Source of the DNA: Chloroflexota bacterium
GTDB taxonomy: Bacteria > Chloroflexota > UBA6077 > FW602-bin22 > JAMCVK01
DNA length: 64,000 nt
NCBI GenBank assembly: GCA_023475225.1
Contig: JAMCVK010000036.1
Span: 26,164 to 90,163, forward strand
Direction: 5' to 3'
Shown here: positions 20,511 to 37,248 of the stretch, piece after piece
Layout: each line of letters opens with the position of its first letter
Numbering within the stretch: position 1 is the first letter of the stretch
Translations under genes and position numbers: made by a program
Notes under the pieces: model-generated
What the model was told of the DNA's origin: nothing
Databases searched by the model: none
What the model saw: the letters and a program-made list of their open reading frames with translations, nothing else

Positions 20511-20612
20511 GTCGAATATCTCCTCAAACCCCTGCAAGGGCTTCAAGGCGGACCTGTGGGCTTTTTGTGCTCTGGGGCACATCCGAAAGACCCTTGGAAC
20601 CACATTCTTTGG
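20511..20612 (+). repeat. R1 dispersed repeat, short full copy
   Basis: GAATATCTCCTCAAACCCCTGCAAGGGCTTCAAGGCGGACCTGTGGGCTTTTTGTGCTCTGGGGCACATCCGAAAGACCCTTGGAACC aligns with the other R1 copies. Confidence 0.75.
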
Positions 20613-20629
20613 CCCTCCCAAAGTAGTAC

Positions 20630-20659
20630 CTGACAAGTGGGAGGGGGCAGTGCTATAAT
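20630..20659 (+). promoter_or_regulatory. Sigma70-type promoter of cassette A (CTGACA - 18 nt - TATAAT)
   Basis: -35 at 20630-20635 and -10 at 20654-20659. An identical promoter sits at the same position in cassette B. Confidence 0.5.
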
Positions 20660-20750
20660 GTTAACAACAGGGCGCTAAGATCCCTGCCAAACGGACTTGC
20701 CCGAAGCGATTTCACTATTCCGCAGCAGCAAGCTCCAGAGAGGAGGCGTG

Positions 20751-20987
20751 ATGGCAGCGGATGCCTACCAGCGGGAAGCAGCGGCTCCAGGTGAGGGGAC
20801 AGTCCCTCCCGGCCTCCCGATGGGCCCAGCCATTCCCCCGTTGAACGTGACCGGCTTGGTGGTGACCAAAGCCGACCTCGTCAAAGCGCTGCGGATATAC
20901 GTCCCCCAACTGTTCGATATCACCTCGCTGGACGATGGGCGTTTCCTGCTGAGCCTGACCCCACTTACCCCAGAGGGGAATAAATAA
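20751..20987 (+). CDS. Cassette A gene 1: 78-aa protein of unknown function
   Basis: ATG 20751 lies 6 nt after GAGGAGG (the track ORF 20697 starts upstream at a non-ATG codon). A near-identical copy lies at 31747..31983. Confidence 0.6.
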   Translation: MAADAYQREAAAPGEGTVPPGLPMGPAIPPLNVTGLVVTKADLVKALRIYVPQLFDITSLDDGRFLLSLTPLTPEGNK

Positions 20988-20997
20988 GGAGGTCATC

Positions 20998-21699
20998 ATG
21001 CCCGAGTGTAGCTGCAACATTTTTCCGGCGAACCTGGGTAACGTCATCTTCGGGGCCAAGGTTGGAATTGGGACAGAGAGTCCGGGAGCGAGATTGCATA
21101 CTTACGAAGTTTATGGAACCGGCGATACCACGCTTCGGGAACAGATTATCATTGAGAGGGACTCTTACACTTATCAGGGTGCGGGTGCTGGTGCTGGTGG
21201 TAGCATCCTGTTCAAAAACCGCGATTATAATGGAGGCAGTATAGAGGCTGGAGAAATCGGCGTTATCAATACAAACAATGTTCAGGGTGACGTCAAACCG
21301 GCGCTGGTCTTTCTATTGGGTCAAGGAACGCCATCTGAAAAGGTTAGAATTACAACAGATGGCAATGTTGGTATTGGGACGACTGGTCCAGAGGCGAAGC
21401 TGCATGTAGAAGGAAGTGTAAACCCATCTATCTTAGTAAAACAAACAACACCTGCTAAGCGAGCCTATTACGAAGTAAATAGCGCTGGCCAATTGCTATC
21501 AACCGACGGCGATATACAGTTTCAAACTAATGGCGGTGGCTGGTCGATCAAGATGGTGCTGACAAATGCTGGCGATGTGGGCATTGGGACGAGTCCTGGG
21601 GAAAAGCTGGAGGTAGCTGGGAACATCAAACTGAGTGGCAGCCTCTTTACGGGGACGCGCAGGGTGGCCGATAGCGGTGGCTGCTACTATGCGGATTGA
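20998..21699 (+). CDS. Cassette A gene 2: fibre-like repeat protein, short allele
   Basis: 233 aa with RBS AAGGAGG. Three copies of the (G/A)-x-V-G-I-G-T-x-x-P-x-x-(K/R)-L motif known from tail-fibre/endosialidase-chaperone type proteins. No signal peptide. It lacks 93 codons that are present in the B allele. Confidence 0.7.
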   Translation: MPECSCNIFPANLGNVIFGAKVGIGTESPGARLHTYEVYGTGDTTLREQIIIERDSYTYQGAGAGAGGSILFKNRDYNGGSIEAGEIGVINTNNVQGDVKPALVFLLGQGTPSEKVRITTDGNVGIGTTGPEAKLHVEGSVNPSILVKQTTPAKRAYYEVNSAGQLLSTDGDIQFQTNGGGWSIKMVLTNAGDVGIGTSPGEKLEVAGNIKLSGSLFTGTRRVADSGGCYYAD

Positions 21700-23115
21700 A
21701 CACTATGGCTACTCAATGGACTGACCATCCTGCTACAAGTAATACCCACATCCGGGCGGTGCACATCAACGAACTGCGCAGCGCCGTTGACTGCAACCGC
21801 AGTGCTTATGGACTCCCAGGCTATGCCTGGACCGATGTTCCTGTCAGCAGTAGCATCCCTATTAGGGCTATACACTTCAACGAGATTCGCACGGCCATTC
21901 AGGACCTCTGGAACCGGAAGTCGATGGGGACGATCCCCAATTGGAGCGTTGGCAGCGCGCCCTCTAGCAGCCGGCCCATAAGTGCCCGGGACATCAACGA
22001 CCTACGGGGTTGGCTGAACCAATATGAAAACACAGGTGGGTTACGAGGCCCGAAACGAGGGATTCATTTGCGGAATAATGGTGACTTACGAACATCTGAA
22101 CTGCAAGCCCTTCAGATGTTTACCCCGGGGCTGGCTGTTGTGCTAAGCACGGATGTTTTGCGTCCCGCTATGCTTAACTATCTCAAAAGTATTCAGAACA
22201 GCGCTGAGATATTCATTCGCCACGTCCCACCTAATGCCCCTCATTGGAGCTATGCACCGATCCATGGTTCTTACTCACTCTATGATCCAACCTATCGATA
22301 TACCTATAACTATGACAAGGCCACGCAGAAGAGTCCTGGGGACGTAGCAACTGAGATAATTACCCTTGCCAACAGCCTAAAGGCTAATGGACTTACTAGC
22401 TTTCGCTGGGTGACCGGCAACGAGCCAGAAATAGAATGGGCCATCGATGGTAGTGTGAGCTGGTGGATCAGGTTTTGGACAGATGTGCAGCACTACTATA
22501 GGGACATATACGACCAGCTAGAAGCGCAGGGCCGTCCCTGCGAAATATACCCACCCTGCTTTCATGCAATACGCATGCGTAGCGGTGGCTAATTACTGGT
22601 CCAATGGCACAGTCACACGAAAAGGGGTGTCTAGCACCGGCCCAAAAGATTTTGAGGGCCTTAACACAGACTATGGAGTCTACTACTGTATTGACATGAT
22701 AGACCACCACACAAACGGAACAGCAGTAGGACGGTTCGTCCAGCACAACTATTTTTGGCCAGGATATCAATCTCAGCATGCGGTTTATAACTTTTGGCCC
22801 CAGTTTCTGAAAGACCGCAAAGCAAGTGGCATGCCAAATCGCATCACTGAGTTTGGTTGGCATCCAGACTGCTTCCCCCCCAACCCATGCAGCGCCAATC
22901 TAGATACGACGACTACTTCCTGCGATGGAGCTCGGACAGGTATTAGCTCCTGGGGAGACTACAACGACTATGTGCGCATATCTGGTCAATTGGATGGATA
23001 TGCCGTGTGGATTCTATCGGATGCAACCGGTAAGTTTGCCGACTTCGTGGCTGTGAAGGAGGACGACACCAGGCGCCCATGGTTCGACAAGTACGTCTGT
23101 TTCCTCAACGCCTAG
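21696..23115 (+). pseudogene. Cassette A gene 3: HxxELR-repeat / clan GH-A-like glycoside hydrolase, split by a frameshift near 22555-22592
   Basis: ORFs 21696..22592 (frame 0) and 22564..23115 (frame 1) are together colinear with the intact 467-aa B paralog. The GNEP motif is in the first ORF and ITEFGW is in the second. Confidence 0.65.
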
Positions 23116-24827
23116 CATCCAAATGTACATGTAGAGGTGCACTGCTAGTTCTCTGCTTGCTGATGTTGGGCAGTGTATGGTCACTTCATCCGCAGCCACA
23201 GGTGGCATGGGCTTGGCAGCAGTACCAAGTTACCCCCTTCCTTATCAGCGACAAAGGAAGTAACCTGCGCCCTGTGGTTTCAGAATACGCCATCATATGG
23301 GCGTCAACCGAGGCTGGGGGCAGGCAGGATATCTATGGCTGGGATTTGAGAACAAACAAGCTTTTCCGGGTGACGGAGACAGGTACGCCCAACAAGTGGT
23401 ACAGCGTTCATGGAAATCTATTGATTTGGATGGACGATAGGGTCCTTCGCGGGTTTGACCTATCGAGGAAGGCTGGGATCACCCTTCCCCTTGCTATTCC
23501 TGGTTCAGCGTACCGGCCAGTGATTTCGGCAGATGCGATTGCCTGGACATCTTTCCCCTTTCCTTGTGCCAAGGTGGGCTATTGTGGGGTGGACATCGAC
23601 GCCTACGATCGCCAGCGGGGAGTGGCGTTTTCGGTAGCCAAAAACGTGACGGAGGCTAGTTCGCTATTCGCTTCTGGCAAGACAATCGTTTGGGCGGATG
23701 GGACAGGCTACCACTATGGGACGAGTCCAATATTTGGGAATGTGTGGGCCTTTAATATAGACAGCAGGTCCACTTTGCAGGTCACCAATCAGCGTACAGC
23801 TATGAAGCCCGCGATATGGGAGAACATAATAGTTTGGCAGGACGACCGGGATAGCACGCCTGAAGGCTTCTATAGTAATAATACCAAAATCTACGGCTAC
23901 GATCTTGAGACGCGGAGGGAATTCCCCATCTCCACTAGCCCTGGCAGAAAGATATCCCCTGCCATTTATGGGCCGCTGGTAGTTTGGCAGGATAACCGCA
24001 TTGGTAACTGGGATATCTATGGTTATGATCTCAGGACAAAGATGGAGTTCCTCATCGCTATAGGGCCGACCAATCAGATCGACCCTCGGATTTCTGGCAA
24101 TCTTGTGGTTTGGATAGACGGAGGCACCGTCGTGCAGCCACCTAGCGGGGGAGCAGTATGGGCAGCTCGCATCTCCTTACCATTAGATTGGGATGTTTCT
24201 AATGGCCACTTCTACACTCAGGCCAACGGCTTCCCACCGGGCACGAGCCACAAGGGCTACGCCATCAGCGATGCGAACGATATCCTCTTCTGGGCTGAGT
24301 TTCAGCGCCTGGGTGGGGTGGACAGCCTGGGCTATCCTGCCTCAAGGCGCTTCATCTGGGATGGCTTCACCAGCCAGGCGATGCAAAAACAGGTCTTCCA
24401 GTGGCGACCAGAGGTGAAGCAGGTCTACTTCGTCAACGTCTTCGATGAGCTCTCCAAAGTGGGCAAGGACGACTGGCTCTTGGCCTATCGTCAGGTGCCC
24501 AAGCCCTTCGACTGGTCAGCCGATGCCGGACTTCCCTGGAGTGAGATCGTGCAGCGCCACCTGAAGCTCCTAGATAGTAACCCGGCCATCAAGGCCCGCT
24601 ACTTGGCCGATCCTGACCCCATCGCCCACTTCGGTTTGCCCATGGCCTATGGGGAGTACGAGAACGTCTTCGTCTTGCGTGGTCAACGGGCCGTGCTGCA
24701 GCAGTGGCGAGTGGATACTCCCTGGGCGAAAGCTGGGCAGGTGACGGTGGCCAACGGGGGAGACATCCTCAAGGAGGCTGGTCTCATCCCCAGGGAGGCG
24801 ATAGTGCCTGAGAGTCCGCCCCAGTAG
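23079..24827 (+). CDS. Cassette A gene 4: secreted beta-propeller-repeat protein with a conserved C-terminal module
   Basis: 582 aa. Signal-like segment RGALLVLCLLMLGSVWSLHPQPQVAWA. Repeated blades follow the pattern (I/V)VWxDxR...(N)WDIYGYDL. The last ~200 aa are highly similar to 34542..36257. Confidence 0.75.
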   Translation: MVRQVRLFPQRLASKCTCRGALLVLCLLMLGSVWSLHPQPQVAWAWQQYQVTPFLISDKGSNLRPVVSEYAIIWASTEAGGRQDIYGWDLRTNKLFRVTETGTPNKWYSVHGNLLIWMDDRVLRGFDLSRKAGITLPLAIPGSAYRPVISADAIAWTSFPFPCAKVGYCGVDIDAYDRQRGVAFSVAKNVTEASSLFASGKTIVWADGTGYHYGTSPIFGNVWAFNIDSRSTLQVTNQRTAMKPAIWENIIVWQDDRDSTPEGFYSNNTKIYGYDLETRREFPISTSPGRKISPAIYGPLVVWQDNRIGNWDIYGYDLRTKMEFLIAIGPTNQIDPRISGNLVVWIDGGTVVQPPSGGAVWAARISLPLDWDVSNGHFYTQANGFPPGTSHKGYAISDANDILFWAEFQRLGGVDSLGYPASRRFIWDGFTSQAMQKQVFQWRPEVKQVYFVNVFDELSKVGKDDWLLAYRQVPKPFDWSADAGLPWSEIVQRHLKLLDSNPAIKARYLADPDPIAHFGLPMAYGEYENVFVLRGQRAVLQQWRVDTPWAKAGQVTVANGGDILKEAGLIPREAIVPESPPQ

Positions 24828-25075
24828 ATGGCCTTTTCGCCCCTCGTTTTGGGACCCCCCTTTATCCCTTCCAGGGGACCTCGGTCTTTCGCTAACTGGA
24901 CGATCCTCTATTCCTTTATAAGAAGCAGGTGATGTTGACCGGTAGGGGGCACTCTGCTATACCTTAGGGCAGTGAGGGCAGAGGGCTCACGGCAGCCTGA
25001 TTTGACGCTGAAGCAATATTATGCTATTATAGTATTACTATAATTATTAGTATTTCTACATTATGAGGTATTACT

Positions 25076-25333
25076 ATGAGACGATCAGAGACCACGCTCA
25101 CACAAAAAGGACAGGTGACCATTCCTCTGGGGGTGCGCCGAGCCCTTGGTTTACAACCGCGGGACAAGATTCACTTTGAAGTGGAAGGAGAGGTAGTCAG
25201 GATGAGGCGGGCGCCCTCAAGGGTACTGGCAGGCTATGGGGCGGTAACCCCTCGAAAAAGGCCGGAGGACTTCAGAGAAGTGCGAGAGGACTTTGAGAGA
25301 GAGGTCGCTGCTGAAGTCCTTGCCGAGACCTAG
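25076..25333 (+). CDS. vapB: AbrB/SpoVT-family antitoxin (VapB)
   Basis: 85 aa. Contains TQKGQVTIPLGVRRALGLQPRDKIHF. Paralog of 4272..4535. Confidence 0.85.
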   Translation: MRRSETTLTQKGQVTIPLGVRRALGLQPRDKIHFEVEGEVVRMRRAPSRVLAGYGAVTPRKRPEDFREVREDFEREVAAEVLAET

Positions 25334-25342
25334 GGAGAGCCG

Positions 25343-25774
25343 ATGCGACCCCGTTTCTTAGATACCAATGTCTTGCTGCGCTACTTTACGCGGGACGATG
25401 AAGAGAAGGCACGGCGAGCGCTGGCCCTATTGACCAGGGTTGAGCGGGGTGAGGAGAAGGTCGTAACCTCGCCCCTGGTTATCTTTGAGACCGTCTTCAC
25501 CCTACAGCACCGCTACCAGGCGCCTCGAAGCCAGATCAGGGGGCTTGTCTTGGACATCATCTCTCTGAGGGGACTCCAACTTCCGGGCAAGGATCTTTAT
25601 CACCGTGCTTTTGAGCTCTATGTGGACAGGAATCTCTCCTTTGCTGATGCCTACAATGTCGCCTATATGGAAAGGAAAAAGGTCCCTGGGATCTATAGCT
25701 GGGATACCGATTTCGATAGGCTGGAGGGTATCAGCCGCTGCGAACCACAAGAAGAAGCTATTTACGAGCCTTGA
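25343..25774 (+). CDS. vapC: PIN-domain toxin VapC
   Basis: 143 aa. Contains MRPRFLDTNVLLRYF and ...SWDTDFD. Paralog of 4540..4953. Confidence 0.85.
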   Translation: MRPRFLDTNVLLRYFTRDDEEKARRALALLTRVERGEEKVVTSPLVIFETVFTLQHRYQAPRSQIRGLVLDIISLRGLQLPGKDLYHRAFELYVDRNLSFADAYNVAYMERKKVPGIYSWDTDFDRLEGISRCEPQEEAIYEP

Positions 25775-26735
25775 GGGCGATGCACATAGATGATTTATCC
25801 AGGCTATGAAAATCATCATTGGGCTTATCAACGATGTCCAGGACCTTCTGGAAAAGGGGGATGGGATTGAAGGGGGAAGTCCCATCTTGATCCCAGGCGA
25901 ACTTGTCCAGCGAGGCGTGAATGCTGGCGGGTAAGGGCACACGTTCGAAAACGATCTGCTTGAAGAAATAGAGGATGTTATGGTTGAAGGGAAGACAGCG
26001 ATGGGTTAAACCCTCCATCTCTTCGACGGAGAGCGCAGCTTCTTGAACAAGCCTCTGAATCTCTGCGGGATAGTAGAGACGCAGGTGCATGGCCCAGATT
26101 CCCCCAAGGAGCCCCTTTTCTTTGCTGAAGTGTCCCAGGCCGAGGGCTTCCCTGGTCTTGTTGAGGGGGTCCCAGAAGAAGGGGTAGTTGTGGTTGGGGA
26201 CGGTTATGGCCACGATTCCCCCTGTCTTGAGGACGCGGCGTATCTCCCTTATGGCCTGGAGGTCATCGGGGACATGCTCCAGGAGCTCGGAGGCGATCAC
26301 CTTAGCGAAGCTCTCATCGGGGAAGGGGAGGCGAGTCGCATCGCCCTGGAGCAGGGTTACGCCTGACCTTTCCCCTAGCCTCTCTCTGGCTCGCGCCAGA
26401 AGTTTTCGGTCCAGGTCCAGCCCATAAAGTCGACAGTTGTACAATCGGGAAATGATCTCGAGGTAAAAGCCCTCGCCACAGCCACAGTCCAGAACAGTAT
26501 CGTCATCTTTAAGGTCCAGGTAGCGCAGGATGGTGCGTACGCGGCGGCGTAGTCCCATATCCCCCACATGGGAGAGCATCCTTTGTAGATGAGAGCGCTG
26601 AATATCTCTCCCAAACCCCCGCAGGGGGTTCAAGGTAGCCCCGTGAGCTTTTTTTGTGCTCTGGGGCACATCCCCAGCCCCCTTGGAACCCTGTTGTTCA
26701 ACAGTCTCTAGATCAGTCTCTTCCGCCTCAGTCAT
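25758..26735 (-). CDS. Class I SAM-dependent methyltransferase (Methyltransf_11-like)
   Basis: Motif I is VLDCGCGEGFY, followed by IASELLEHVPD. The first ~45 codons of the ORF are a translated R1 repeat. The alternative start is M53 at 26579 (MLSHVGDMGL). Confidence 0.8.
   Translation of the reverse strand: MTEAEETDLETVEQQGSKGAGDVPQSTKKAHGATLNPLRGFGRDIQRSHLQRMLSHVGDMGLRRRVRTILRYLDLKDDDTVLDCGCGEGFYLEIISRLYNCRLYGLDLDRKLLARARERLGERSGVTLLQGDATRLPFPDESFAKVIASELLEHVPDDLQAIREIRRVLKTGGIVAITVPNHNYPFFWDPLNKTREALGLGHFSKEKGLLGGIWAMHLRLYYPAEIQRLVQEAALSVEEMEGLTHRCLPFNHNILYFFKQIVFERVPLPASIHASLDKFAWDQDGTSPFNPIPLFQKVLDIVDKPNDDFHSLDKSSMCIALKARK
26598..26704 (+). repeat. R1 dispersed repeat, full copy lying between or within GT4 and methyltransferase coding sequence
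   Basis: CTGAATATCTCTCCCAAACCCCCGCAGGGGGTTCAAGGTAGCCCCGTGAGCTTTTTTTGTGCTCTGGGGCACATCCCCAGCCCCCTTGGAACCCTGTTGTTCAACAG. Confidence 0.8.
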
Positions 26736-27882
26736 AGCTGCGTTCGATCACCTCGATGTTCCTCTCACTGAAATGGGCCAGGGCATAATCCCGACAGTTA
26801 ATGCGCAATCTCTCCAGCTCCTCCCGATGCTGGTAGTAATAGTCGAGCGTCGCCACGATATTGGCCACCGTTGGTTCGATGAGCCGTCCCACAGAGGGAT
26901 CGATGAAATAGGGCAGGCAGCCCCTGTTGGCGGCGATGACCGGCGTTCCACAGGCTATGGACTCCAGAACCACCGTGGCGAATCCCTCTTCGTATTGGGA
27001 GGGAAGGAGGCAGACGTCAGCCGCACTGTAGTACTCCACGATGGTGTGCTGCGCATCGTCTGGGATACGTCCTCTGAAGACGACGTTTGGTTGTTTCAAG
27101 GAGCGCTCCTGGAGCGTGGCGGCCAGCGGCCCGTCGCCGACGAAGACGAAGGTTAGCGGTGAATTGACCTGGGAGGCGGCCTCGAGCAGCAACAACACCC
27201 CCTTCTTGGCGATCAAGCGTCCGAGGAAGAGGGCGATGAAATCGTCTTGTTTGAATCCTAGGCTTGCTCTGCTCTCAGCCTTATCGAGAGGGGCGAAGAG
27301 CTCCAGGTCGATCCAGTTAGGGTGTATGGCCATACGTTCCTCTGGCAGTCCGATCTGGAGGAGCTCTTGCCGGGAGGGCTCGCCGACAGCCAGGATGAAG
27401 TCGAAGGGGGAGAGTAACCAGGCGATGATGGCGGCCAGCACCTTACGCTGTCCCAGGTCGTATACGGCGTGAGTGCTCAGCACGGTTCTCTTGCGGTGGA
27501 TGGTGGTCAAGACCCTGGTGATGGCCGCGGCCACAAAGCCGTGAGCGTGGATAACATCTATCTCTTTATGATGAGACAGATAAAAGTAGAGGCTATACAG
27601 GAAGAGCCCCGGGAAAAGGTAGGCGAAGACGAGGGGAAAGAACGGTTCTAGCCTGTGGAACAGCCCCTGGCCGAACCAGGGTACCCGATGTATTACCAGA
27701 TTGGGGCTTTTCTCCAGCGGGAGACCCTTCGTCCGGGTAGTTAATGGCTGGTAGGTGATGACCTGAACGTTGTAGTTATTTTGCGCTAGATGGCGGGTGA
27801 GCTTATCCAGATGGGCTTCGACCCCTCCCACATTGGGTCGGAAGAAGGGACAGATGATCAGTATGGACTTAGGGGCGGTCAT
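26728..27882 (-). CDS. GT4-family glycosyltransferase
   Basis: 384 aa. N-terminus ILIICPFFRPNVGGVEAH; C-terminus YEEGFATVVLESIACGTPVIAANRG. Confidence 0.85.
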   Translation of the reverse strand: MTAPKSILIICPFFRPNVGGVEAHLDKLTRHLAQNNYNVQVITYQPLTTRTKGLPLEKSPNLVIHRVPWFGQGLFHRLEPFFPLVFAYLFPGLFLYSLYFYLSHHKEIDVIHAHGFVAAAITRVLTTIHRKRTVLSTHAVYDLGQRKVLAAIIAWLLSPFDFILAVGEPSRQELLQIGLPEERMAIHPNWIDLELFAPLDKAESRASLGFKQDDFIALFLGRLIAKKGVLLLLEAASQVNSPLTFVFVGDGPLAATLQERSLKQPNVVFRGRIPDDAQHTIVEYYSAADVCLLPSQYEEGFATVVLESIACGTPVIAANRGCLPYFIDPSVGRLIEPTVANIVATLDYYYQHREELERLRINCRDYALAHFSERNIEVIERSYD

Positions 27883-28442
27883 GCGCCGCTATCCCCCTCA
27901 CGGCGGGCGATGATTATCTCCACCGCTGCGCTCAGGTCAGTGGCCAGCTGAAACGAGCCGTATTTCTTACTGGTGGTAGCTTCACCACGATACCTGCCGC
28001 TGAGCACGAGGATGACCCGACAACCTGCTTCGTAACCAGCCTGGGCATCGTCGAGACTGTCGCCGATCAAGAACGACTCCTTCAGGTTTACGCCAAATTC
28101 GGCGGCGGCCGTCTGGAGCATGCCCCCCTTGGGCTTGCGACAGGCGCAATTCTCCTCGGGGCGATGAGGACAAACGTAGACCTTATCTATCCTACCGCCA
28201 GCCTGATTTAGCTCCTCGAGCATCTTATAGTGAATCTCCTCCAGTTGAGCGAGGGAGATGAGCCCCTTACCGACGACCGACTGGTTAGTGACGATGATGA
28301 TGGCGTAGGGGGTCTTGGCCAGACGACGTAGCGCCCGCTTCACGCCGGGGAGGAAGACGAACTCCTCAGCGCTTTCGACGTATTTATGTTCGCCGGGACT
28401 GACATTGATGACCCCATCGCGATCAAGAAAGACCGCTCTCAA
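27879..28442 (-). CDS. gmhB: D-glycero-D-manno-heptose 1,7-bisphosphate phosphatase (HAD-IIIA)
   Basis: 187 aa. Contains VFLDRDGVIN, the Zn-finger-like CPHRPEENCACRKPKGGM, and GDSLDD. Confidence 0.85.
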   Translation of the reverse strand: MRAVFLDRDGVINVSPGEHKYVESAEEFVFLPGVKRALRRLAKTPYAIIIVTNQSVVGKGLISLAQLEEIHYKMLEELNQAGGRIDKVYVCPHRPEENCACRKPKGGMLQTAAAEFGVNLKESFLIGDSLDDAQAGYEAGCRVILVLSGRYRGEATTSKKYGSFQLATDLSAAVEIIIARREGDSGA

Positions 28443-29988: not shown

Positions 29989-30695
29989 TTTAGTATCCCT
30001 TTCAAGGAGTCCAGTCCTTCTGGAGTGCCTATGTCATAGAACCTCTGTCTGGTTGGGTAAGCAGCCAATTGATGGTCGGCTATTAGCTGAGGGAAGACCC
30101 CTTCCTCCAGGGAAACCGCCTTTCCTTTCGCTATGAGGGAAAGCATCTCTTTCTTAAACAGCGTTACCCCAGCATCTAGGTAACCCATGGCCATCGTGCT
30201 GCGGTATTTATTATAGGCCATGACGAAGCCGTCTTCATCTAGAGCGACATTCGAGATCCCTATGGCTATCCTGTTGTCGTAGACCACCATCAATCCTAGG
30301 GTATCCCTCTGCTCGAAGGCGGTGATGACCTTTCCATAGTCGAAGGATAAGAAGGTATCCCCATTCAAGACGATGAAGCGGTCCTCCAGCAGACTCTCCG
30401 CCCTCTTTATGGCCCCGCCGGTTCCCAGCGGTTGTGGTTCGTGAGAATAGCGGATGGACAGGCCAAAGCGGGAGCCATCGCCGAAGTAATCAACGATCCG
30501 GTCGCCCAAGTAGCCGACACAGATCACGATGTCCCGTAATCCCTGTTCCTTCAGGAGTATAAGTTGGTGCTCCAGGAACGGTTTAGCGTTGATGGGCATC
30601 ATCGGCTTTGGCGTAGCGTAGGTATAGGGGCGCAGTCTGGTGCCCAATCCGCCAGCCAGGATCACCACCTGCATCTCGGCGATCTCCTCTCTCAC
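29985..30695 (-). CDS. hddC: D-glycero-alpha-D-manno-heptose-1-phosphate guanylyltransferase-like nucleotidyltransferase
   Basis: 236 aa. VVILAGGLGTRLRPYTYATPKPMMPI is a sugar-1-P nucleotidyltransferase signature. The context is the gmhA/hddA/gmhB operon. Confidence 0.75.
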   Translation of the reverse strand: MREEIAEMQVVILAGGLGTRLRPYTYATPKPMMPINAKPFLEHQLILLKEQGLRDIVICVGYLGDRIVDYFGDGSRFGLSIRYSHEPQPLGTGGAIKRAESLLEDRFIVLNGDTFLSFDYGKVITAFEQRDTLGLMVVYDNRIAIGISNVALDEDGFVMAYNKYRSTMAMGYLDAGVTLFKKEMLSLIAKGKAVSLEEGVFPQLIADHQLAAYPTRQRFYDIGTPEGLDSLKGILK

Positions 30696-30826
30696 AGTGC
30701 TGGATCTCTCTTTGCCTCCTCATTGTAGTGAGCGATAAAGGGAAGTCAAGGGGCGATACTCATGATACCCATATTTAGTACGCTTCTTTTCTTGGTGAAA
30801 ACTGAGGTTCTGAATGTCGGTGGCTG

Positions 30827-31267
30827 TTAAGGTTTGCCAGCAGTCAACAGATGAAAGCCGTACTGGGCGAAATGACGATCAAAACTTAAAGCGTAGCTGA
30901 TGTTCATGCGCTCCATCACCGCGAAACTTATGGCATCGGTGAAGGAGAAATTCTTGTCGGCATACTTATAAACGGTTGCCCGTGCCTGCTTTAAATCCAA
31001 AAGAGTAGGATGCACAACAGTCGTGGAGCTGTTTTCGATCTCCTTGAGGAACTTGGTGGCAATGTGTTGGTTGAGTCGGGCAAGTAGTAGTGTATGGGTC
31101 TTGGCAACAACGAAGGTGGTCGTGAAAAGAGGCGAACACTGGTTTGCCAGTTGTGTGAGTATAGCCTGAGCACGGTGGTAATTGGTATCGTCATCGTCAG
31201 CCAGGGCAAAGTAGGCTGAGGTGTCGATGAAAACGCGAGAGCTGGATGCCGAAGGGTGGTTCTTCAT
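30827..31267 (-). CDS. vapC: PIN-domain toxin VapC
   Basis: 146 aa. Contains VFIDTSAYFALADDDD and ...SFDRHF. Confidence 0.8.
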   Translation of the reverse strand: MKNHPSASSSRVFIDTSAYFALADDDDTNYHRAQAILTQLANQCSPLFTTTFVVAKTHTLLLARLNQHIATKFLKEIENSSTTVVHPTLLDLKQARATVYKYADKNFSFTDAISFAVMERMNISYALSFDRHFAQYGFHLLTAGKP

Positions 31268-31557
31268 GCCCTCTTGCGATAGTCGAGATATGCCTCGGCT
31301 AGGTACTTGTGCTTATTCTCTGAGATATTCCCAAGACCGGAGTGGCCAATCCCAATAAGATTCCACAATGAATCATTCTTGGTGAACGGCTTGTCCCTGG
31401 GGATGCGCTTTTTGGTTGGGTGAGTGGGGGTGAGGATTGCTACTTCCTCGTTGTCCCGTTTCAAAACGCGCGGCTCGTGCGTTGCTCGGACCTCCTCCAC
31501 AATTCGTAACAGTTCTGGGATATTACTGATATCGATGGTTTTTAGCTCTCTCGCCAT
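31264..31557 (-). CDS. Type II antitoxin, paralog of 2792..3097
   Basis: Likely start at M26 of the track ORF (MARELKTIDISNIPELLRIVEEV). A 4-nt overlap joins it to vapC. Confidence 0.7.
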   Translation of the reverse strand: MARELKTIDISNIPELLRIVEEVRATHEPRVLKRDNEEVAILTPTHPTKKRIPRDKPFTKNDSLWNLIGIGHSGLGNISENKHKYLAEAYLDYRKRA

Positions 31558-31625
31558 AGTACTCACCCCCTCCCTGAGTAATAACAGTATAGCAGATTTC
31601 AGGCAGTCAATCCAGGGTCTTTGTA

Positions 31626-31655
31626 CTGACAAGTGGGAGGGGGCAGTGCTATAAT
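31626..31655 (+). promoter_or_regulatory. Sigma70-type promoter of cassette B (CTGACA - 18 nt - TATAAT)
   Basis: -35 at 31626-31631 and -10 at 31650-31655. Identical to the cassette A promoter. Confidence 0.5.
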
Positions 31656-31746
31656 GTTAACAACAGGGCGCTAAGACCCCTGCCAAAGGGACTTGCCCGA
31701 AGCGATTTCACTATTCCACAGCAGCAAGCTCCAGAGAGGAGGCGTG

Positions 31747-31983
31747 ATGGCAGCGGATGCCTACCAGCGGGAAGCAGCGGCTCCAGGTGAGGGGACTATC
31801 CTCCAGGGCCTCCCAATGGGCCCAGCCATTTCCCCATTGAACGTGACCGGCTTGGTGGTGACCAAAGCCGACCTCGTCAAAGCGTTGCGGATATACGTCC
31901 CCCAACTGTTCGATATCACCTCGCTGGACGATGGGCGTTTCCTGCTGAGCCTGACCCCACTTACCCCAGAGGGGAATAAATAA
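31747..31983 (+). CDS. Cassette B gene 1: 78-aa protein of unknown function
   Basis: Same as 20751..20987 except for a clustered patch (TILQGLPMGPAISP vs TVPPGLPMGPAIPP). Confidence 0.6.
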   Translation: MAADAYQREAAAPGEGTILQGLPMGPAISPLNVTGLVVTKADLVKALRIYVPQLFDITSLDDGRFLLSLTPLTPEGNK

Positions 31984-31993
31984 GGAGGTCATC

Positions 31994-32971
31994 ATGCCCG
32001 AGTGTAGCTGCAACATTTTTCCGGCGAACCTGGGTAACGTCATCTTCGGGGCCAAGGTTGGAATTGGGACAGAGAGTCCGGGAGCGAGATTGCATACTTA
32101 CGAAGTTTATGGAACCGGCGATACCACGCTTCGGGAACAGATTATCATTGAGAGGGACTCTTACACTTATCAGGGTGCGGGTGCTGGTGCTGGTGGTAGC
32201 ATCCTGTTCAAAAACCGCGATTATAATGGAGGCAGTATAGAGGCTGGAGAAATCGGCGTTATCAATACAAACAATGTTCAGGGTGACGTCAAACCGGCGC
32301 TGGTCTTTCTATTGGGTCAAGGAACGCCATCTGAAAAGGTTAGAATTACAACAGATGGCAATGTTGGTATTGGGACGACTGGTCCAGAGGCGAAGCTGCA
32401 TGTAGAAGGAAGTGTAAACCCATCTATCTTAGTAAAACAAACAACACCTGCTAAGCGAGCCTATTACGAAGTAAATAGCGCTGGCCAATTGCTATCAACC
32501 GACGGCGATATACAGTTTCAAACTAATGGCGGTGGCTGGTCGATCAAGATGGTGCTGACAAATGCTGGCAACGTTGGCATAGGGACGACGGGTCCGGCAT
32601 CGCGGCTCCATATTGGAGGGGCAAATGCTCACCTTACGGTAGGTCCGTTCATGCCCCGTGATGTGCCTGGGGAGGGCATCATAGGGGTGAGTGGCAGCCT
32701 CGCTGGGCTTGAATTTGCCAGACGGACCCTAACGATTTGGCCGGCCTCACCAGTAGCTGGGGATAAGTTCGTCTGGTATAACCCTGACGGGAAGGCTTGT
32801 TTATGGACGCAGGTGAATGGGGATTTAATCACAGTCACAAATGCTGGCAACGTGGGCATTGGGACGAGTCCTGGGGAAAAGCTGGAGGTAGCTGGTAACA
32901 TCAAACTGAGTGGCAGTCTCTTTGCGGGGACGCGCAAGGTGGCCGATAGCGGTGGCTGCTACTATGCGTAG
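31994..32971 (+). CDS. Cassette B gene 2: fibre-like repeat protein, long allele
   Basis: 325 aa with four GxVGIGTxxPxx(K/R)L motifs. The first 192 codons are nucleotide-identical to the A allele. Confidence 0.7.
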   Translation: MPECSCNIFPANLGNVIFGAKVGIGTESPGARLHTYEVYGTGDTTLREQIIIERDSYTYQGAGAGAGGSILFKNRDYNGGSIEAGEIGVINTNNVQGDVKPALVFLLGQGTPSEKVRITTDGNVGIGTTGPEAKLHVEGSVNPSILVKQTTPAKRAYYEVNSAGQLLSTDGDIQFQTNGGGWSIKMVLTNAGNVGIGTTGPASRLHIGGANAHLTVGPFMPRDVPGEGIIGVSGSLAGLEFARRTLTIWPASPVAGDKFVWYNPDGKACLWTQVNGDLITVTNAGNVGIGTSPGEKLEVAGNIKLSGSLFAGTRKVADSGGCYYA

Positions 32972-32979
32972 CGACCATC

Positions 32980-33087
32980 ATGCCTGCTTTTTGGACTGAC
33001 GATCCCGCCATTACCAGTACCTACATCCGTGTGGTATACATCAACGAGCTACGAAGCACAGTCGACTGTCACCTTCTATACCCTTAA
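32980..33087 (+). pseudogene. 35-codon remnant of an A-type gene 3 N-terminus
   Basis: MPAFWTDDPAITSTYIRVVYINELRSTVDCHLLYP* compares with A3 MATQWTDHPATSNTHIRAVHINELRSAVDCNRSAYG. It is followed by a fresh RBS (AAGGAGG) and the divergent B3 gene. Confidence 0.6.
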
Positions 33088-33118
33088 GGTTTTCTAATGC
33101 TGTCAAGGAGGATGAGCT

Positions 33119-34522
33119 ATGGCCACGCAATGGACGAACCCCGTTGCCCCTGGCAGTCCCATAAGGGCCTTTGATATCCAGGAAGTCATCAATGCCATCA
33201 ACAACAATCGGAGTGCCGCTGGGCTCGAACCCTTCCCCTGGACCGATCCGGTTGTGGCCGCTGAGATGCCGATCAAGGCGGTGCACTTCACAGAGATGAG
33301 GCAGGCTATCCAGGGGCTCTGGAGCAGCAAATCTATGGGGGCGCTACCCAACTGGAGCAGTGGGGTTACACCAGGGGGACCTAGTGCAGGAACTGCTGCA
33401 ACCATAATCTATGCCAGCGACCTTACTGACCTGCGTGGTTGGCTGAATCAGTATGAGAATGCCACCCGTACCACCAACCCGAAAAGGGGCATGCATCTTA
33501 GGGACGATGATCATCGCCAAGAAGACTACTGGGCCCTCAACGAGTACAACCCAGGCTCCGTAGTGCTACTAAGTAGGCAGTTGGTCGATTGGGATTCTAG
33601 TCTTAATGACTGGGTTATGACTGTTAGCCAGAAGGCTCTAGCCGACTGGCTTAAGGCCCGGGTAACCCACCCGGCCGGGATGGAGGTCTTTGTGCGGATA
33701 TACCCTTCGCCGCAGACCCGACCCATTTATAGTCAGCCCTTCGAGGGGCATCCGAACAATGGTGTGGTGGATGAAATTTTCCGAGTTTACGATAAGGTTT
33801 TGGCTTATAATGGGCTGGTGATTAGTCGCTATTTGCCAGGTAACGAACCCAACACAGAGTGGGGGCTTAACGCCTACTTGGGATCGACCTGGGACACCAT
33901 AGCGGCCTATTATACCGATGTCTATAACACTACCCAGGCAAACAAGGGGACTCGCAACATAGAGCTATATACGCCGCCCATAGCGCAGCAGAACTACGCA
34001 GAGGAGTACAATATTGAGGGTGGAGTGCCCATGCAGTTAGACACTGGGGAACTGGGTGGCTACAACCGGGCGTCGGTCAAGGCGATGATCCAGCTTTACA
34101 ACTCCTTCTCGTGGCACAATTACTTTAGGAGGAACAACGCCTGGCAGCATCGAGTGGAGCAGTATTTCCCCACCTGGCTTCAGGAGCACTTGTGGGTCCA
34201 TCTGGCCCCGGCCAGGATCACCGAAGCGGGCTGGAAGCCGGAGGAGGGCTCCAACAGAGATTATGATTTCGGCTCATCCGCCTATTGGAACGACATGAAC
34301 TATTTTATGAGGACGGCTACCCAGGCAGGGGGCGTCATGGTGTGGCTAGTCAGTAAGCTGAACCCGGTGCCGGGGGAGAACGTCTGGAAGCATGCTGCTG
34401 TCGCAAAAGATTATTCTACCACGGACCCCAATTACAATCCTGATACCACTGGGAACGCCGATGGGACGGTAATTCGACCCTGGATCAGGAAGCTGGCTAT
34501 CATCGCGCCGCCCACGCCGTAA
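33119..34522 (+). CDS. Cassette B gene 3: HxxELR-type repeat N-domain fused to a clan GH-A-like (GH5-type) glycoside hydrolase
   Basis: 467 aa. Three N-terminal repeats (SPIRAFDIQEVINAI, MPIKAVHFTEMRQAI, IIYASDLTDLRGWL). LPGNEPNTEW (acid/base-like NEP) and ARITEAGW (nucleophile-like TE) are separated by ~125 aa. Confidence 0.65.
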   Translation: MATQWTNPVAPGSPIRAFDIQEVINAINNNRSAAGLEPFPWTDPVVAAEMPIKAVHFTEMRQAIQGLWSSKSMGALPNWSSGVTPGGPSAGTAATIIYASDLTDLRGWLNQYENATRTTNPKRGMHLRDDDHRQEDYWALNEYNPGSVVLLSRQLVDWDSSLNDWVMTVSQKALADWLKARVTHPAGMEVFVRIYPSPQTRPIYSQPFEGHPNNGVVDEIFRVYDKVLAYNGLVISRYLPGNEPNTEWGLNAYLGSTWDTIAAYYTDVYNTTQANKGTRNIELYTPPIAQQNYAEEYNIEGGVPMQLDTGELGGYNRASVKAMIQLYNSFSWHNYFRRNNAWQHRVEQYFPTWLQEHLWVHLAPARITEAGWKPEEGSNRDYDFGSSAYWNDMNYFMRTATQAGGVMVWLVSKLNPVPGENVWKHAAVAKDYSTTDPNYNPDTTGNADGTVIRPWIRKLAIIAPPTP

Positions 34523-34541
34523 GGAGGCTTGGCTTAGCACC

Positions 34542-36257
34542 ATGCTGCACAGACGTATTCCAGTGCACTTGACAGGCTCGGTGATGATTGCCTTATTCGT
34601 AACCCTCGTCTCAGGTTTATTCTCAGCGAGCACGGACGTTGTGCATGCTGACGGCCCATTCAAAGCCGAAATTTTCCGCATATCTGGACCTCCGGGGGAA
34701 AAACTGAATCCCGCGATTCATGATGGTCTAGTTGTTTGGCAGGACAAGCGGGGAGGAGATTGGGATATTTACGGATTTGATCTGCAAGGGAATCGAGAGT
34801 TCGTTATTTCCTCCGCCGTTGGCGACCAAGTTGCACCAAGGATTTTCAGGCCCTGGGTCGTCTGGGCTGATAACCGTAATGGCAACTGGGATATATATGC
34901 CTTCAACCTGGACTCCAGAGAAGAATTGCGGCTCACCACCGACCCCTCTCATCAAGAGATGCCGTCCATTTGGGGAACCACAGTAATTTGGCGAGACAAG
35001 CGCAACTGGGTAAACGATTACGAAGGCTCGTATGATCTCTATGGGTATGACCTCGTTTCCCGTCGCGAGTTCCCAGTCGTTGTGACCCCGATCACCGACG
35101 AAACCGCGCCCCAGATCTGGGGTCGTCGCGTCGCCTACCGAGCAGCAGGGTTGCACGGCATCAAGTTCAACGTAATAGGCGTGGTTAGCGTCTACCATCT
35201 GGATCAAAAGAGTGCTGTAGAGCTCAAGCCCCCGGAGCCAATGCCTTCCTACGGCTTTTCACTGTCCGGGGACCGAATTGCCTGGGTCAAGGGTTTCCCT
35301 CCCCCTGGGGCACTACTCTGCTGCCGTCCTGAGATGTACGTTACCAATCTGGCAACAGGAGAGGATGTTAACCTTGTGGAACCTTTTCTTCCAACTGATC
35401 CCCACATGGATGGCTCGCTGCTAGTATGGTCAGTTTTTCAAGGGTCAGAGCAGGATGGCATTTGGCTCTACGATACTGAATCCCGCATCAGATCCTATCT
35501 CATTCGGGATAGAGTAATCGCCGCTAGTCTTAGCGGCAATGTCGTTATTTGGTTGGACACTCTGGATGTGGCCAAAGGCCGTTATAGGGGCCTGTCCGGC
35601 GCGCGCATTGTGCGACAGCTAGACTGGCAGGTTCCCAACGGCCACTTCTACACTCAGGCCCGGGGCGAGGCCCCCGCTGGCACAGGCTACGCCGTCACCA
35701 ATGACCCCCAGGCCCTCTTCTGGGCTGAGTTGCAGCGCCTAGGCGGGGTGCCAGCCCTGGGCTATCCTGCCTCAAGGCGCTTCATCTGGGATGGCTTCAC
35801 CAGCCAGGTGATGCAAAAACAGGTCTTCCAGTGGCGACCAGAGGTAGAAAAGGTCTACTTCGTCAACGTCTTCGATGAGCTCTCCAAAGCGGGCAAGGAC
35901 GACTGGCTATTGGCCTATCGTCAGGTGCCCAAGTCTTTCGACTGGTCAGCCGATGCCGGACTTCCCTGGAGTGAGATCGTGCAGCGCCACCTGAAGCTCC
36001 TGGATAGCAACCCGGCCATCAAGGCCCGCTACTTGGCCGATCCTGACCCCATCGCCCACTTCGGTTTGCCCATGGCCTATGGGGAGTACGAGAACGTCTT
36101 CGTATTGCGTGGTCAACGGGCCGTGTTGCAGCAGTGGCGAGTGGATACTCCCTGGGCGAAAGCTGGGCAGGTGACGGTGGCCAATGGGGGAGACATCCTC
36201 AAGGAGACTGGACTTATCCCCAGGGAGGCGATAGTGCCTGAGAGTCCGCCCCAGTAG
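34542..36257 (+). CDS. Cassette B gene 4: secreted beta-propeller-repeat protein with a conserved C-terminal module
   Basis: 571 aa. Signal peptide MIALFVTLVSGLFSASTDVVHA. Blades include VVWQDKRGGDWDIYGFDL, VVWADNRNGNWDIYAFNL and VIWRDKRN...YDLYGYDL. The C-terminal ~170 aa are nearly identical to the A allele. Confidence 0.75.
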   Translation: MLHRRIPVHLTGSVMIALFVTLVSGLFSASTDVVHADGPFKAEIFRISGPPGEKLNPAIHDGLVVWQDKRGGDWDIYGFDLQGNREFVISSAVGDQVAPRIFRPWVVWADNRNGNWDIYAFNLDSREELRLTTDPSHQEMPSIWGTTVIWRDKRNWVNDYEGSYDLYGYDLVSRREFPVVVTPITDETAPQIWGRRVAYRAAGLHGIKFNVIGVVSVYHLDQKSAVELKPPEPMPSYGFSLSGDRIAWVKGFPPPGALLCCRPEMYVTNLATGEDVNLVEPFLPTDPHMDGSLLVWSVFQGSEQDGIWLYDTESRIRSYLIRDRVIAASLSGNVVIWLDTLDVAKGRYRGLSGARIVRQLDWQVPNGHFYTQARGEAPAGTGYAVTNDPQALFWAELQRLGGVPALGYPASRRFIWDGFTSQVMQKQVFQWRPEVEKVYFVNVFDELSKAGKDDWLLAYRQVPKSFDWSADAGLPWSEIVQRHLKLLDSNPAIKARYLADPDPIAHFGLPMAYGEYENVFVLRGQRAVLQQWRVDTPWAKAGQVTVANGGDILKETGLIPREAIVPESPPQ

Positions 36258-36297
36258 GTAGGCCCTCGCTCTTCGTTTTGGGGATCCCCCTCCAGCG

Positions 36298-37248
36298 CTA
36301 TCGGCATCTCAGCAGTCTCTGTATGGCTATCCTGATGGCCTCTTCGGAGGTCAGGTGGGCCTTCCAGCCCAGGCGGTTGATCCTGCTGACATCCAGGAGC
36401 ATCAGGGGCACATCGCCTGGCCAGCCGCGATCGCCACCACTGTACCTCAGGGCGACGTTGCGATAGCCTCCCTCCTCAAGGAGTATCTGGACGATGCGGT
36501 CGACGGTGAGGCTATCCTGGCTACCCAGGTTGAAGACGTTCAATCCCTCCCCACAGTGCTGAATGGCGTAGAACATGCCCTCAACACACTCATCAACTAG
36601 TAGATAGGACTTCTTCTGCTTCCCATCACCCAGAATCTCCAGGTTGTAGGGGTCCATTTTCAGCTTAGCGAGGAGGTCCACGATGAGACCATGCGTTTGG
36701 CGGGGACCGACGATATTAGCGAAGCGGAAGATCCAGACCGATGTCTGGAAGAGATGGCTATAGGCGGCGATCAATCCCTCGCAGGCCAGCTTGCTGGCGC
36801 CATACAGGGAGATGGGCAGCAAGGGCCCATAATCCTCGGGGGTAGGGATGACTGTCGGCTGCCCGTAAATTACAGAACTGGAGGAGAAGGCCATGGCCCC
36901 AACGCCATTTTCGCGCATCGCCTCCAGGACGTTATAGGTGGCGATGGTGCCCTGTTGTAGATCTACGTCGGTGCGTGTGGCGACGAACTTTATATCTGGG
37001 TTAGCGGCCATATGAAAGACGAAGTCGTGTCCCTTCATCGCTGCCTTGAGTTGCTCCAGGTCCATCAGGTCGGCCTGCACGAAACGGAAGTTAGGCTTGG
37101 TCCAGTGCTGTTGAAGGAGCCCCTTGTGGCCGGATCTCAGGTTGTCGTAAACGGTTACCTGTGCGGCTCCCTCCTGAAACAGCCTGTCCACGATGTTGCT
37201 GCCGATGAAGCCGGCTCCCCCTGTGACAAATACCCTGCGTCCCAACAT
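36298..37248 (-). CDS. NAD-dependent sugar-nucleotide epimerase/dehydratase
   Basis: 316 aa. Contains VFVTGGAGFIGSNIV and the catalytic YGASKLACE (Y-x3-K). Confidence 0.85.
   Translation of the reverse strand: MLGRRVFVTGGAGFIGSNIVDRLFQEGAAQVTVYDNLRSGHKGLLQQHWTKPNFRFVQADLMDLEQLKAAMKGHDFVFHMAANPDIKFVATRTDVDLQQGTIATYNVLEAMRENGVGAMAFSSSSVIYGQPTVIPTPEDYGPLLPISLYGASKLACEGLIAAYSHLFQTSVWIFRFANIVGPRQTHGLIVDLLAKLKMDPYNLEILGDGKQKKSYLLVDECVEGMFYAIQHCGEGLNVFNLGSQDSLTVDRIVQILLEEGGYRNVALRYSGGDRGWPGDVPLMLLDVSRINRLGWKAHLTSEEAIRIAIQRLLRCR

Follow-up and report, generated by a model that had tools for sequence, protein, structure and literature searches.

Phages use receptor-binding modules in which a separate adhesin or depolymerase is docked on a trimeric fibre by way of an N-terminal adaptor, as in gp37-gp38 of T2 and S16 or in branched tailspikes of the CBA120 and G7C kind. 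A cell-encoded counterpart is found in Bdellovibrio bacteriovorus, whose MAT fibres have a signal peptide, a conserved N-terminal domain of ~130 amino acids and, in the same chain, a tip domain or an S74 chaperone (PMC10769870). Here we describe two related gene cassettes, A and B, in a 64,000-nt stretch of contig JAMCVK010000036.1 from a Chloroflexota bacterium (the whole stretch is referred to as the window, and positions are counted from its first letter). Each cassette encodes a small protein (gene 1), a predicted fibre (gene 2), a predicted enzyme (gene 3) and a propeller protein with a signal peptide or a similar N-terminus (gene 4). They appear to be of a recognisable kind, that of modular, recombining fibre-plus-enzyme recognition modules; three of their domain families are unannotated. 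Judged from their sequences, the cassettes depart from MAT fibres and from phage receptor-binding modules, the closest known systems, in features that define each: they have no MAT signal peptide, N-terminal domain or tip in cis, stand in no virion context and are absent from viral contigs. The family, found so far only in uncultured Chloroflexota, matches no described system; an earlier note on this DNA, made from the letters alone, could name none with these genes, library and literature searches gave none either, and the literature searches found no description of Chloroflexota fibre cassettes. With a probability of roughly 0.45, we read the family as a cell-made phage-type fibre with an exchangeable glycanase and a wall-held propeller, encoded by a multi-copy operon family in which the payload is swapped.

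Three BLASTN blocks match cassette A to cassette B, and beyond these there is no long DNA repeat between the two. The 5' block (20630-21592 against 31626-32588) extends over 963 nt at 98.2% identity with 17 mismatches and zero gaps; it holds the promoter, the leader, gene 1 and codons 1-198 of gene 2, and its left end coincides exactly with the -35 hexamer. Codons 17-30 of gene 1 account for nine of the 17 mismatches, and the 684 nt from 20890 to 21573 are free of differences. The 3' block (24184-24861 against 35620-36291) covers 681 nt at 90% identity, with a core of about 520 nt (~24320-24800) at about 96-97% and only ~64% upstream of ...LGYPASRRF; this fall in identity sets the right-hand breakpoint at ...LGYPASRRF. 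The conserved 3' zone is given as 24310-24861 in A, where it comprises the second half of the gene 4 anchor-like domain and 34 nt past the stop codon, and, from BLASTN and the identity profile against A, as 35740-36291 in B. A third block (21562-21793 against 32837-33068, 232 nt, 84% identity) is shifted by an additional fibre repeat, ~279 nt long, in gene 2 of B. Between these zones the gene 3 proteins are 36% identical, and the gene 4 proteins 48% over nearly their full length, a value that includes the near-identical C-terminal module; the best segment of the propeller alone gives 35%. Much of what the earlier note had claimed is borne out by this comparison: near-identical ends around a diverged middle, 3' ends alike from ...LGYPASRRF onwards, a middle that is homologous at the protein level only, a common CTGACA-18-TATAAT promoter, and the gene content of the cassettes, with which the open reading frames (ORFs) and translations agree. 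Its near-identical 5' zone also stands, with the correction that BLASTN counts 17 differences over 963 nt where 13 had been given.

The promoter-like site lies on the plus strand at 20630-20659 in A and 31626-31655 in B; it has a TG extension, scores 11/12 and is the best such site in each region. A predicted promoter of the form (C/T)TGACAAGTGGGAGGGG..AGTG(C/A)TATAA(T/C) is common to all five cassettes retrievable so far (A, B, C, D and F, described below), and C keeps it although the rest of its coding DNA has diverged past blastn detection. A riboswitch or structured leader was considered and rejected (leader fold z = +0.74), and Rfam finds nothing in the cassettes. Gene 1 (plus strand, 20751-20987 in A and 31747-31983 in B) encodes 78 amino acids, 95% identical between the two, and in A has a good ribosome-binding site upstream. 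Searches of Pfam, NCBIfam, PHROGs and PADLOC left it without a match; 5.8 billion clustered proteins contained no more than 10 relatives, and 2.9 million viral contigs gave 0 confirmed matches.

Gene 2 is a predicted trimeric fibre shaft with relatives among phage tail fibres and the Bdellovibrio MAT fibres. In A (20998-21699, plus strand) it encodes 233 amino acids that start MPECSCNIFP and end ...SGGCYYAD, without a signal peptide; in B (31994-32971, plus strand) the same protein reaches 325 amino acids, with the additional repeat inserted around 32589-32867. A phmmer search of the PDB matches it to the Bdellovibrio fibre Bd2133 (8ond, E 1.2e-12) and also to 8oml, 8ol4 and 8ojn, in all cases within residues 68-218 only. 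The PHROG tail-fibre families phrog_9942 (E 1.4e-17) and phrog_18345 (E 5.5e-16) match as well, and tblastn finds 34 phage records, including fibres of cyanophages, pelagiphages and Thermus phages. The start of the protein, MPECSCNIFPANLGNV..., shows no hydrophobic leader and no MAT-type domain of ~130 amino acids; neither a Peptidase_S74 domain nor any Pfam match was found, and the chain ends ~25 residues past the last shaft motif. The cassettes share with the MAT fibres the homologous shaft repeats (8ond), the presence of many paralogues per genome with a constant proximal part and swapped distal parts, and the encoding by a cell instead of a phage. They differ in that the fibre, at 233-325 amino acids, lacks the signal peptide, the MAT N-terminal domain and S74, that the distal function sits on a separate gene product, and that genes 1 and 4 travel along.

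Gene 3 is best described as a repeat module at the N-terminus (N-module) joined to a clan GH-A-like barrel, a predicted enzyme outside the curated families searched. In B it is intact (33119-34522, plus strand, 467 amino acids), with the N-module in residues 1-116 and the barrel in residues 117-467. In A (21705-23115, plus strand) it is read as two ORFs, 21696-22592 and 22564-23115, split by a one-base frameshift at 22550-22563, and each half aligns to the matching part of intact relatives; phase variation at this site was rejected, since the sequence there, CCCACCC, is no long homopolymer. The N-module, at 33119-33466 in B, aligns as three repeats of the pattern W-T/S-D..P....I-R/K-A-x-H-x-x-E-L-R-x-A. 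The barrel conserves an R, an H, GNEP, WHNY and TE.GW, with GNEP at residues 241-244 and ITEAGW at 367-372 of the B protein. GNEP is invariant in 8/8 close relatives, and in 31 distant ones its Glu and Pro are invariant and its Asn is kept in at least 90%; the Glu of strand 7 is invariant in the same 31 and in every close relative that is long enough (one is truncated). An AlphaFold2 (AF2) model of the B protein (pLDDT 64.6, pTM 0.61) has eight strand-helix units and places N242-E243 just past strand 4 and E369 on strand 7. Searched with Foldseek against the PDB, this model gives 32 matches at E <= 1e-3, nearly all in clan GH-A (GH30, GH5, GH26, GH79), with GH39 and GH53 just above that threshold; the TM-scores are 0.30-0.40 and the identity to solved enzymes is 9-17%. 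In a viral fold library, phage GH5-type enzymes come out on top.

The likeness to clan GH-A (GH5, GH26, GH30, GH39, GH79) thus consists of a predicted (beta/alpha)8 barrel with Asn-Glu after strand 4 and Glu on strand 7, of the retained Arg, His and His-x-Tyr, and of the fact that nearly all significant fold matches, in the solved-structure and viral libraries, are to this clan. The difference, besides the low identity, is that no glycoside hydrolase model of Pfam or NCBIfam applies: the gene 3 proteins of A and B have no match in these libraries at E <= 0.1, and 0 of 31 relatives match a glycoside hydrolase model of Pfam. Sequence searches of the PDB with gene 3, gene 4, the N-module profile and the profile of the gene 4 anchor-like domain likewise gave no usable match.

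A profile search with gene 3 recovered 4593 relatives in 1.84 billion representative proteins; some match both the N-module and the barrel, others one of the two, and each part occurs without the other. In many relatives the N-module stands at the extreme N-terminus, ahead of Rv2525c-like, GH25, RHS, LRR, SBBP propeller or cohesin domains, and some of its proteins also match PHROG endolysin families. A hydrophobic N-terminus is seen in 0 of 36 N-module proteins. Of 33 barrels without the N-module, 22 have a signal peptide or a transmembrane segment, and such barrels also carry accessory domains of a carbohydrate-binding type (Golvesin_C in 9 of 31, plus F5/8 type C and Laminin_G_3), which suggests that the barrel family is normally extracellular and that the N-module takes the place of the export signal. 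The N-module itself is absent from Pfam, NCBIfam, PHROGs and the PDB, and a tblastn search of 50,697 phage genomes did not find it. The 2.9 million viral contigs contained one weak match, to a single repeat. The ORF concerned encodes 375 amino acids with one THVRAVHINELRQAIEYL repeat (9476-10603 of the viral contig L015) and lies after a tape-measure-like gene and before an integrase. Ten relatives of the N-module or of gene 3 obtained by cluster look-up were all metagenome proteins, none with a cultured host.

Scans of genome and metagenome contigs with the N-module returned Chloroflexota metagenome-assembled genomes (MAGs) or metagenome contigs without a name, and nothing else. Wherever the sequence ahead of the N-module gene could be read, it holds a fibre or tip gene: this is so in L003 and L012 (twice each), L010, L011, L013, L016, L017, L020, L021, L022 and L023. 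The upstream gene usually begins M..C.C..F, and it ends ...(V/I/T)(A/D).(S/G/N)GGCYYA(S/A/V/D) or in a near variant (...ALYA, ...CLYV, ...SLYA). The fibres D2 and F2, which have no N-module gene behind them, are also without a GGCYYA-type ending. Other companions are less regular. The fibre is preceded by a gene 1 homologue in L013 and L016, and a remnant of one is left in L014; in L013, L016, L017 and L023 an OmpR-type response regulator is encoded immediately before the fibre, and a GreA-like ORF separates the fibre gene from the N-module gene in L020 and L022. The conserved core of the family is, as far as gene order indicates, a fibre ending ...GGCYYA followed by an N-module protein, with genes 1 and 4 optional or replaceable, and the four-gene set that the earlier note had treated as the unit must give way to this smaller core.

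Gene 4 joins TIGR04275 repeats to a C-terminal domain of ~205 amino acids. In B (34542-36257, plus strand) it encodes 571 amino acids with a Sec-type signal peptide; in A (23079-24827, plus strand) the N-terminus is signal-peptide-like and the start codon uncertain, the NCBI annotation having 517 amino acids. The Sec-type leader was read from the sequence. The TIGR04275 beta-propeller repeats score 128.3 bits in A and 119.1 bits in B against a cut-off of 85, and the ~205-residue domain lies at 24200-24827 in A and 35640-36257 in B. Across Pfam, NCBIfam, PHROGs and PADLOC, these propeller repeats and the tail-fibre families of gene 2 are the sole matches to genes 1-4. The ~205-residue domain is built of two LG(Y/L)P...Q.FQ..v.qW units with a helical insert between them. 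There are 245 relatives of gene 4, and most of the 120 listed match through this domain alone; its partners include M1 peptidases, GH18, CAP, trypsin-like proteases, amidases, GH5 and RlpA, mostly in Chloroflexota, and over 100 of the Chloroflexota exoenzymes listed carry it. It is N-terminal in 87 of 111 relatives, usually right behind the signal peptide, and C-terminal in 20. This distribution points to a generic Chloroflexota exoprotein domain that is not specific to the cassettes: the module is indeed conserved between A and B, as first noted, and the idea that it belongs to the cassettes in particular has to be dropped.

LGFP repeats have been proposed as cell-wall anchors (PMC3314691), and a model of the ~205-residue domain (pLDDT 59) has its best Foldseek match, a weak one at E 0.016, in the LGFP domain of C. 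glutamicum MytA (6swz). With the LGFP anchor of Corynebacterium PS1/MytA (PF08310; 6swz) it shares the two LG(Y/L)P units and the attachment to many secreted enzymes; it differs in having the helical insert, a fold match that is weak and no match to the Pfam LGFP model. The domain may therefore be called weakly LGFP-like, and binding to the wall is a prediction. In some cassettes the position of gene 4 is taken by another, unannotated signal-peptide family with two ...RIEIVWPHD... repeats (L002 11457-12476, L003 1879-2973, L021 2016-2957 and L023 17027-18034).

The earlier note knew two cassettes; at least five can be retrieved from the assembly (A, B, C, D and F), and a sixth relative of gene 1 (E, P0139) was not placed. 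Cassettes C, D and F come from GCA_023382375.1, taken as the source assembly by the locus-tag prefix that it shares with the window (M1136_08875-M1136_08945). Cassette C (L002 8920-12476) has 46% identity in gene 1 and 40% in gene 3, a different protein of 236 amino acids ending ...SSGACLYV in the fibre position and a different signal-peptide protein, and it adjoins insertion sequence fragments and PMT-type glycosyltransferases. In cassette D (L008), gene 1 is 82% identical and the 5' zone is 86% identical to that of A over 441 nt; the cassette is truncated behind the fibre (L008 10941-10969), which is followed directly by a remnant of the cassette 3' end. Cassette F (L009) has a promoter, gene 1 and fibre 93% identical to the 5' zone of A over 1 kb, with a stop at fibre codon 39 (L009 546-1493), and downstream two pairs of an anchor-domain protein and a Glyco_hydro_cc-like barrel, then a 3' remnant.

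Several traces of exchange are found among these copies. Cassette B contains, at 32980-33087 on the plus strand, a 5' remnant of an A-type gene 3, 35 codons long (MPAFWTDDPAITSTYIRVVYINELRSTVDCHLLYP*), ahead of a new ribosome-binding site and the B-type gene 3; its DNA is matched at 84% identity by 21562-21793 of A. An independent Logan assembly contig (L001) contains the remnant too, and is 100% identical to 32939-35785 with both of its ends inside repeated zones. The last ~75-100 nt of gene 4 and ~35 nt downstream persist at the right edge of D and F and, in L003, where one tandem cassette meets the next; gene 4 itself is missing at these places. Informative sites among A, B and F divide into 42 that group A with B, 13 that group A with F and 3 that group B with F, including ten consecutive sites within 20801-20889 that group A with F, and 21394-21561 is identical in all three. 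Together, the 684-nt run without substitutions, the remnant in B, the 3' remnants of gene 4 and the A/B/F mosaic show that the arms undergo gene conversion and that the payload is replaced by recombination, in agreement with the earlier note, which had read the conserved flanks around a replaced centre as driven by recombination.

Of the annotated ORFs of the window, scanned down to a length of 80 amino acids, none encodes a site-specific recombinase, a reverse transcriptase or an integron integrase, and in a self-comparison the variable part had no inverted repeats on either side. The simplest mechanism would hence be general homologous recombination that now and then leaves an illegitimate junction, and the cassettes differ from shufflon or invertase systems, diversity-generating retroelements and integrons, none of whose enzymes occur among those ORFs. 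A larger duplication that took in the flanking glycan genes was rejected, as the glycosyltransferase, methyltransferase and radical-SAM pairs are only 25-28% identical.

In the model that we favour, gene 2 would form a short trimeric fibre of the phage tail-fibre kind. Gene 3 would be a monomeric enzyme whose three-repeat N-module provides pseudo-threefold symmetry, so that one molecule could dock on the conserved C-terminal tip of the fibre trimer (...GGCYYA) and the docked fibre would carry a polysaccharide hydrolase of the clan GH-A type. Gene 4 would be a Sec-exported beta-propeller protein held at the cell wall by its LGFP-like domain, and the assembly would act on polysaccharide outside the cell. 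Gene conversion would keep the 3' end alike among the copies and, on the 5' side, the promoter, gene 1 and the N-terminus and shaft of the fibre; recombination would replace the enzyme and the propeller between these arms, and the copies would come to differ in glycan-directed activity as the target changes. It is from sequence that we infer docking, an extracellular site of action, the glycan target and the biological role, and on the same grounds the cassettes may be proposed to act in specificity, for instance in host range or surface polymorphism. By analogy, the PAAR and VgrG proteins of type VI secretion also place a chain with threefold repeats, bearing varied enzymes or RHS toxins, beside a trimeric spike-like protein; they differ in that there is no relationship in sequence or fold and no type VI secretion genes lie by the cassettes, where docking is itself a prediction.

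Several observations weigh against this model. No export signal can be recognised in genes 2 and 3, nor do secretion genes lie nearby, so that action outside the cell is a prediction. Docking is argued from gene order and from the co-occurrence of the ending with the N-module, and the loci were found through the N-module, which biases the count. The same repeat module is carried C-terminally in the Big_9/reprolysin proteins P0009-P0013; it is thus not an N-terminal adaptor in the strict sense, and on this ground a role as a strict N-terminal export signal was rejected. The AF2 models are of moderate to low confidence (pLDDT 64.6 and 59) with low Foldseek TM-scores, and the model assigns no role to gene 1. 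Finally, three of the five recovered cassettes carry lesions (the frameshift in A, the nonsense codon in F and the truncation of D), and L003 has a gene 3 frameshift of its own, elsewhere than in A, at about 4950-5000; the family may be partly decaying, or the lesions may be MAG errors.

The window runs from housekeeping genes through toxin-antitoxin and restriction-modification genes, a tRNA-Lys and a glycan biosynthesis island to cobalamin genes with a riboswitch. The cassettes lie on the plus strand inside the island, which is encoded on the minus strand from 13378 to 43744 and holds GT4 and GT2 glycosyltransferases, radical-SAM/B12 enzymes, methyltransferases, heptose genes, an epimerase and a Wzx-like flippase. 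A and B are set apart by ~6.8 kb of unique genes, and between them lies a GmhB-, GmhA-, HddA- and HddC-like nucleotide-heptose pathway (27879-30695, minus strand), of which GmhB scores above its curated cut-off and the GmhA-, HddA- and HddC-like genes below theirs. The left edge of the 30-kb island is marked by tRNA-Lys(CTT) (13267-13340, minus strand), a typical island boundary. Further to the left, 5238-11480 encodes a DNA methylase, an Mrr_N protein and a 962-amino-acid ResIII helicase with a TnsA-like endonuclease end, a Type III-like restriction-modification set. To the right, an ordinary cobalamin riboswitch (54520-54663, minus strand) stands ahead of an ABC transporter and cobalamin biosynthesis run at 44033-54345.

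Each cassette lies just downstream of a divergently transcribed PIN toxin-antitoxin pair. Such pairs are found at 19756-20438 (minus), 25076-25774 (plus), 30827-31632 (minus) and 4272-4953 (plus); they bracket both cassettes, and the pair at 25076-25774 is paralogous to that at 4272-4953 (39-49% amino acid identity). An element of ~90 nt occurs in four copies (20514-20601, 26600-26690, 43799-43896 and, on the minus strand, 2263-2341), one of them immediately upstream of the cassette A promoter; it has three hairpins, the middle one terminator-like (GCCCTGTGGGC followed by a T-run). Self-comparison also revealed short repeats at 933-988, 1062-1117 and 17042-17096, which are 91% identical to one another, with an inverted partner.

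The cassettes might instead be orphan receptor-binding modules, that is, alternative tail fibres with tip-attached depolymerases that serve a prophage, a tailocin or a contractile injection system encoded elsewhere and are assembled in the cytoplasm and released by lysis, or leftovers of such modules. The fibre shaft is homologous to that of phage receptor-binding modules and the enzyme is encoded directly downstream, as it is there; the fibre is constant at its N-terminus and varies distally, in the manner of fibres attached to a baseplate, and a conserved adaptor, an exchangeable catalytic part and horizontal swaps at domain borders are common to both. The absence of signal peptides from genes 2 and 3, the fusion of N-module relatives to endolysin-type domains and RHS, the phage GH5-like enzymes among the best viral fold matches and the single-repeat ORF behind a tape-measure-like gene on a viral contig point the same way. 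We nevertheless consider this origin unlikely, as virion, baseplate, sheath, terminase and lysis genes are missing from the 64-kb window and from the flanks of L002, L003, L008, L009 and L023. With Pfam no virion structural or tail gene was found among most of the large window ORFs, nor do the gene tables of L002, L003, L007, L008, L009 and L023 contain one, and the lack of virion genes, in which the cassettes differ from phage modules, extends to every locus examined. No secretion genes occur near the cassettes among the annotated window ORFs, and PADLOC gives 0 matches for the proteins of cassettes A, B and C, so that the claim of the earlier note that phage structural, secretion and immunity genes do not accompany the cassettes holds. 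Gene 1 is moreover absent from 2.9 million viral contigs, where the N-module has one weak match; neither PHROGs nor the phage genome collection contains the N-module. The cassettes each have a sigma-70-type promoter of their own, an OmpR-type regulator stands just upstream in other genomes, and the operon includes a Sec-exported protein predicted to be anchored in the wall.

Many exopolysaccharide operons encode a cognate hydrolase, for example PslG or BcsZ, and the cassettes could in the same way be housekeeping genes for the surface glycan of the cell itself, with a hydrolase that trims or releases the polysaccharide of the island, a propeller and a fibre that bind it, and middles that differ per glycan. 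A and B do interrupt the 30-kb glycan island, cassette C lies beside PMT-type glycosyltransferases, and L003 is found beside Wzy and glycosyltransferases. Against this improbable reading, the cassettes stand on the strand opposite to the island, with their own promoter and bracketed by toxin-antitoxin pairs, and look inserted more than like operon members; D and F lie outside glycan contexts; and elsewhere the N-module carries RHS and peptidoglycan-hydrolase domains, which fit attack better than self-maintenance. The hydrolase, further, has no export signal, and gene 3 differs from hydrolases of the PslG and BcsZ type in its opposite strand, its own promoter and the lack of a hydrophobic N-terminus.

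Tandem-like duplication followed by plain divergence, with the ends kept by stronger purifying selection and no recombination, has in its favour that gene 1, the fibre N-terminus and the anchor domain are conserved parts of proteins. It is very hard to maintain and close to excluded, being contradicted by the gene 3 remnant at the junction, by the mosaic sites among three copies and by the 684-nt run. Purifying selection is insufficient here because this run, free of substitutions at third codon positions as well, adjoins a middle without DNA identity; in addition, identity changes sharply at the zone boundaries and the non-coding promoter and leader are conserved too. That a MAG assembler duplicated one cassette or mis-joined two strains is the least credible explanation, even though the source is a MAG, exact repeats of 684 nt are difficult to assemble from short reads and both ends of the independent contig lie within repeat zones, since the copies differ from each other (17 differences in the 5' zone, about 3.5% in the 3' zone and unrelated middles), are separated by unique genes, have further, diverged counterparts on other contigs and include a B interior that is exactly reproduced in an independent assembly, all of which speaks for A and B as true copies and not a collapsed or duplicated assembly.

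A wider version of our reading, in which the cassettes belong to a phage-independent way of fibre display that is Chloroflexota's own, is more doubtful. In it the N-module would load enzymes or toxins (GH-A glycanases, lysozymes, RHS) onto the ...GGCYYA tip, the loaded fibre would reach the surface by a route that needs no signal peptide, and the dispersed, partly defective paralogues would be a reservoir of payloads exchanged by gene conversion at the 5' and 3' arms.

The locus is a clear case of concerted evolution, with homology arms, a swapped payload and remnants at the junctions, and it brings to light three unannotated domain families: the N-module, the GH-A-like barrel and the anchor-like domain of ~205 residues. 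If the reading that we prefer is true, a cell-made fibre with an exchangeable glycanase and a wall-held propeller, the family would be the second cell-encoded use of phage-type fibres as surface tools, after the Bdellovibrio MAT fibres, and the first in a monoderm-type, almost uncultured phylum. The combination of a single-chain module of three repeats with a trimeric fibre would then be a new way of attaching interchangeable enzymes or toxins.

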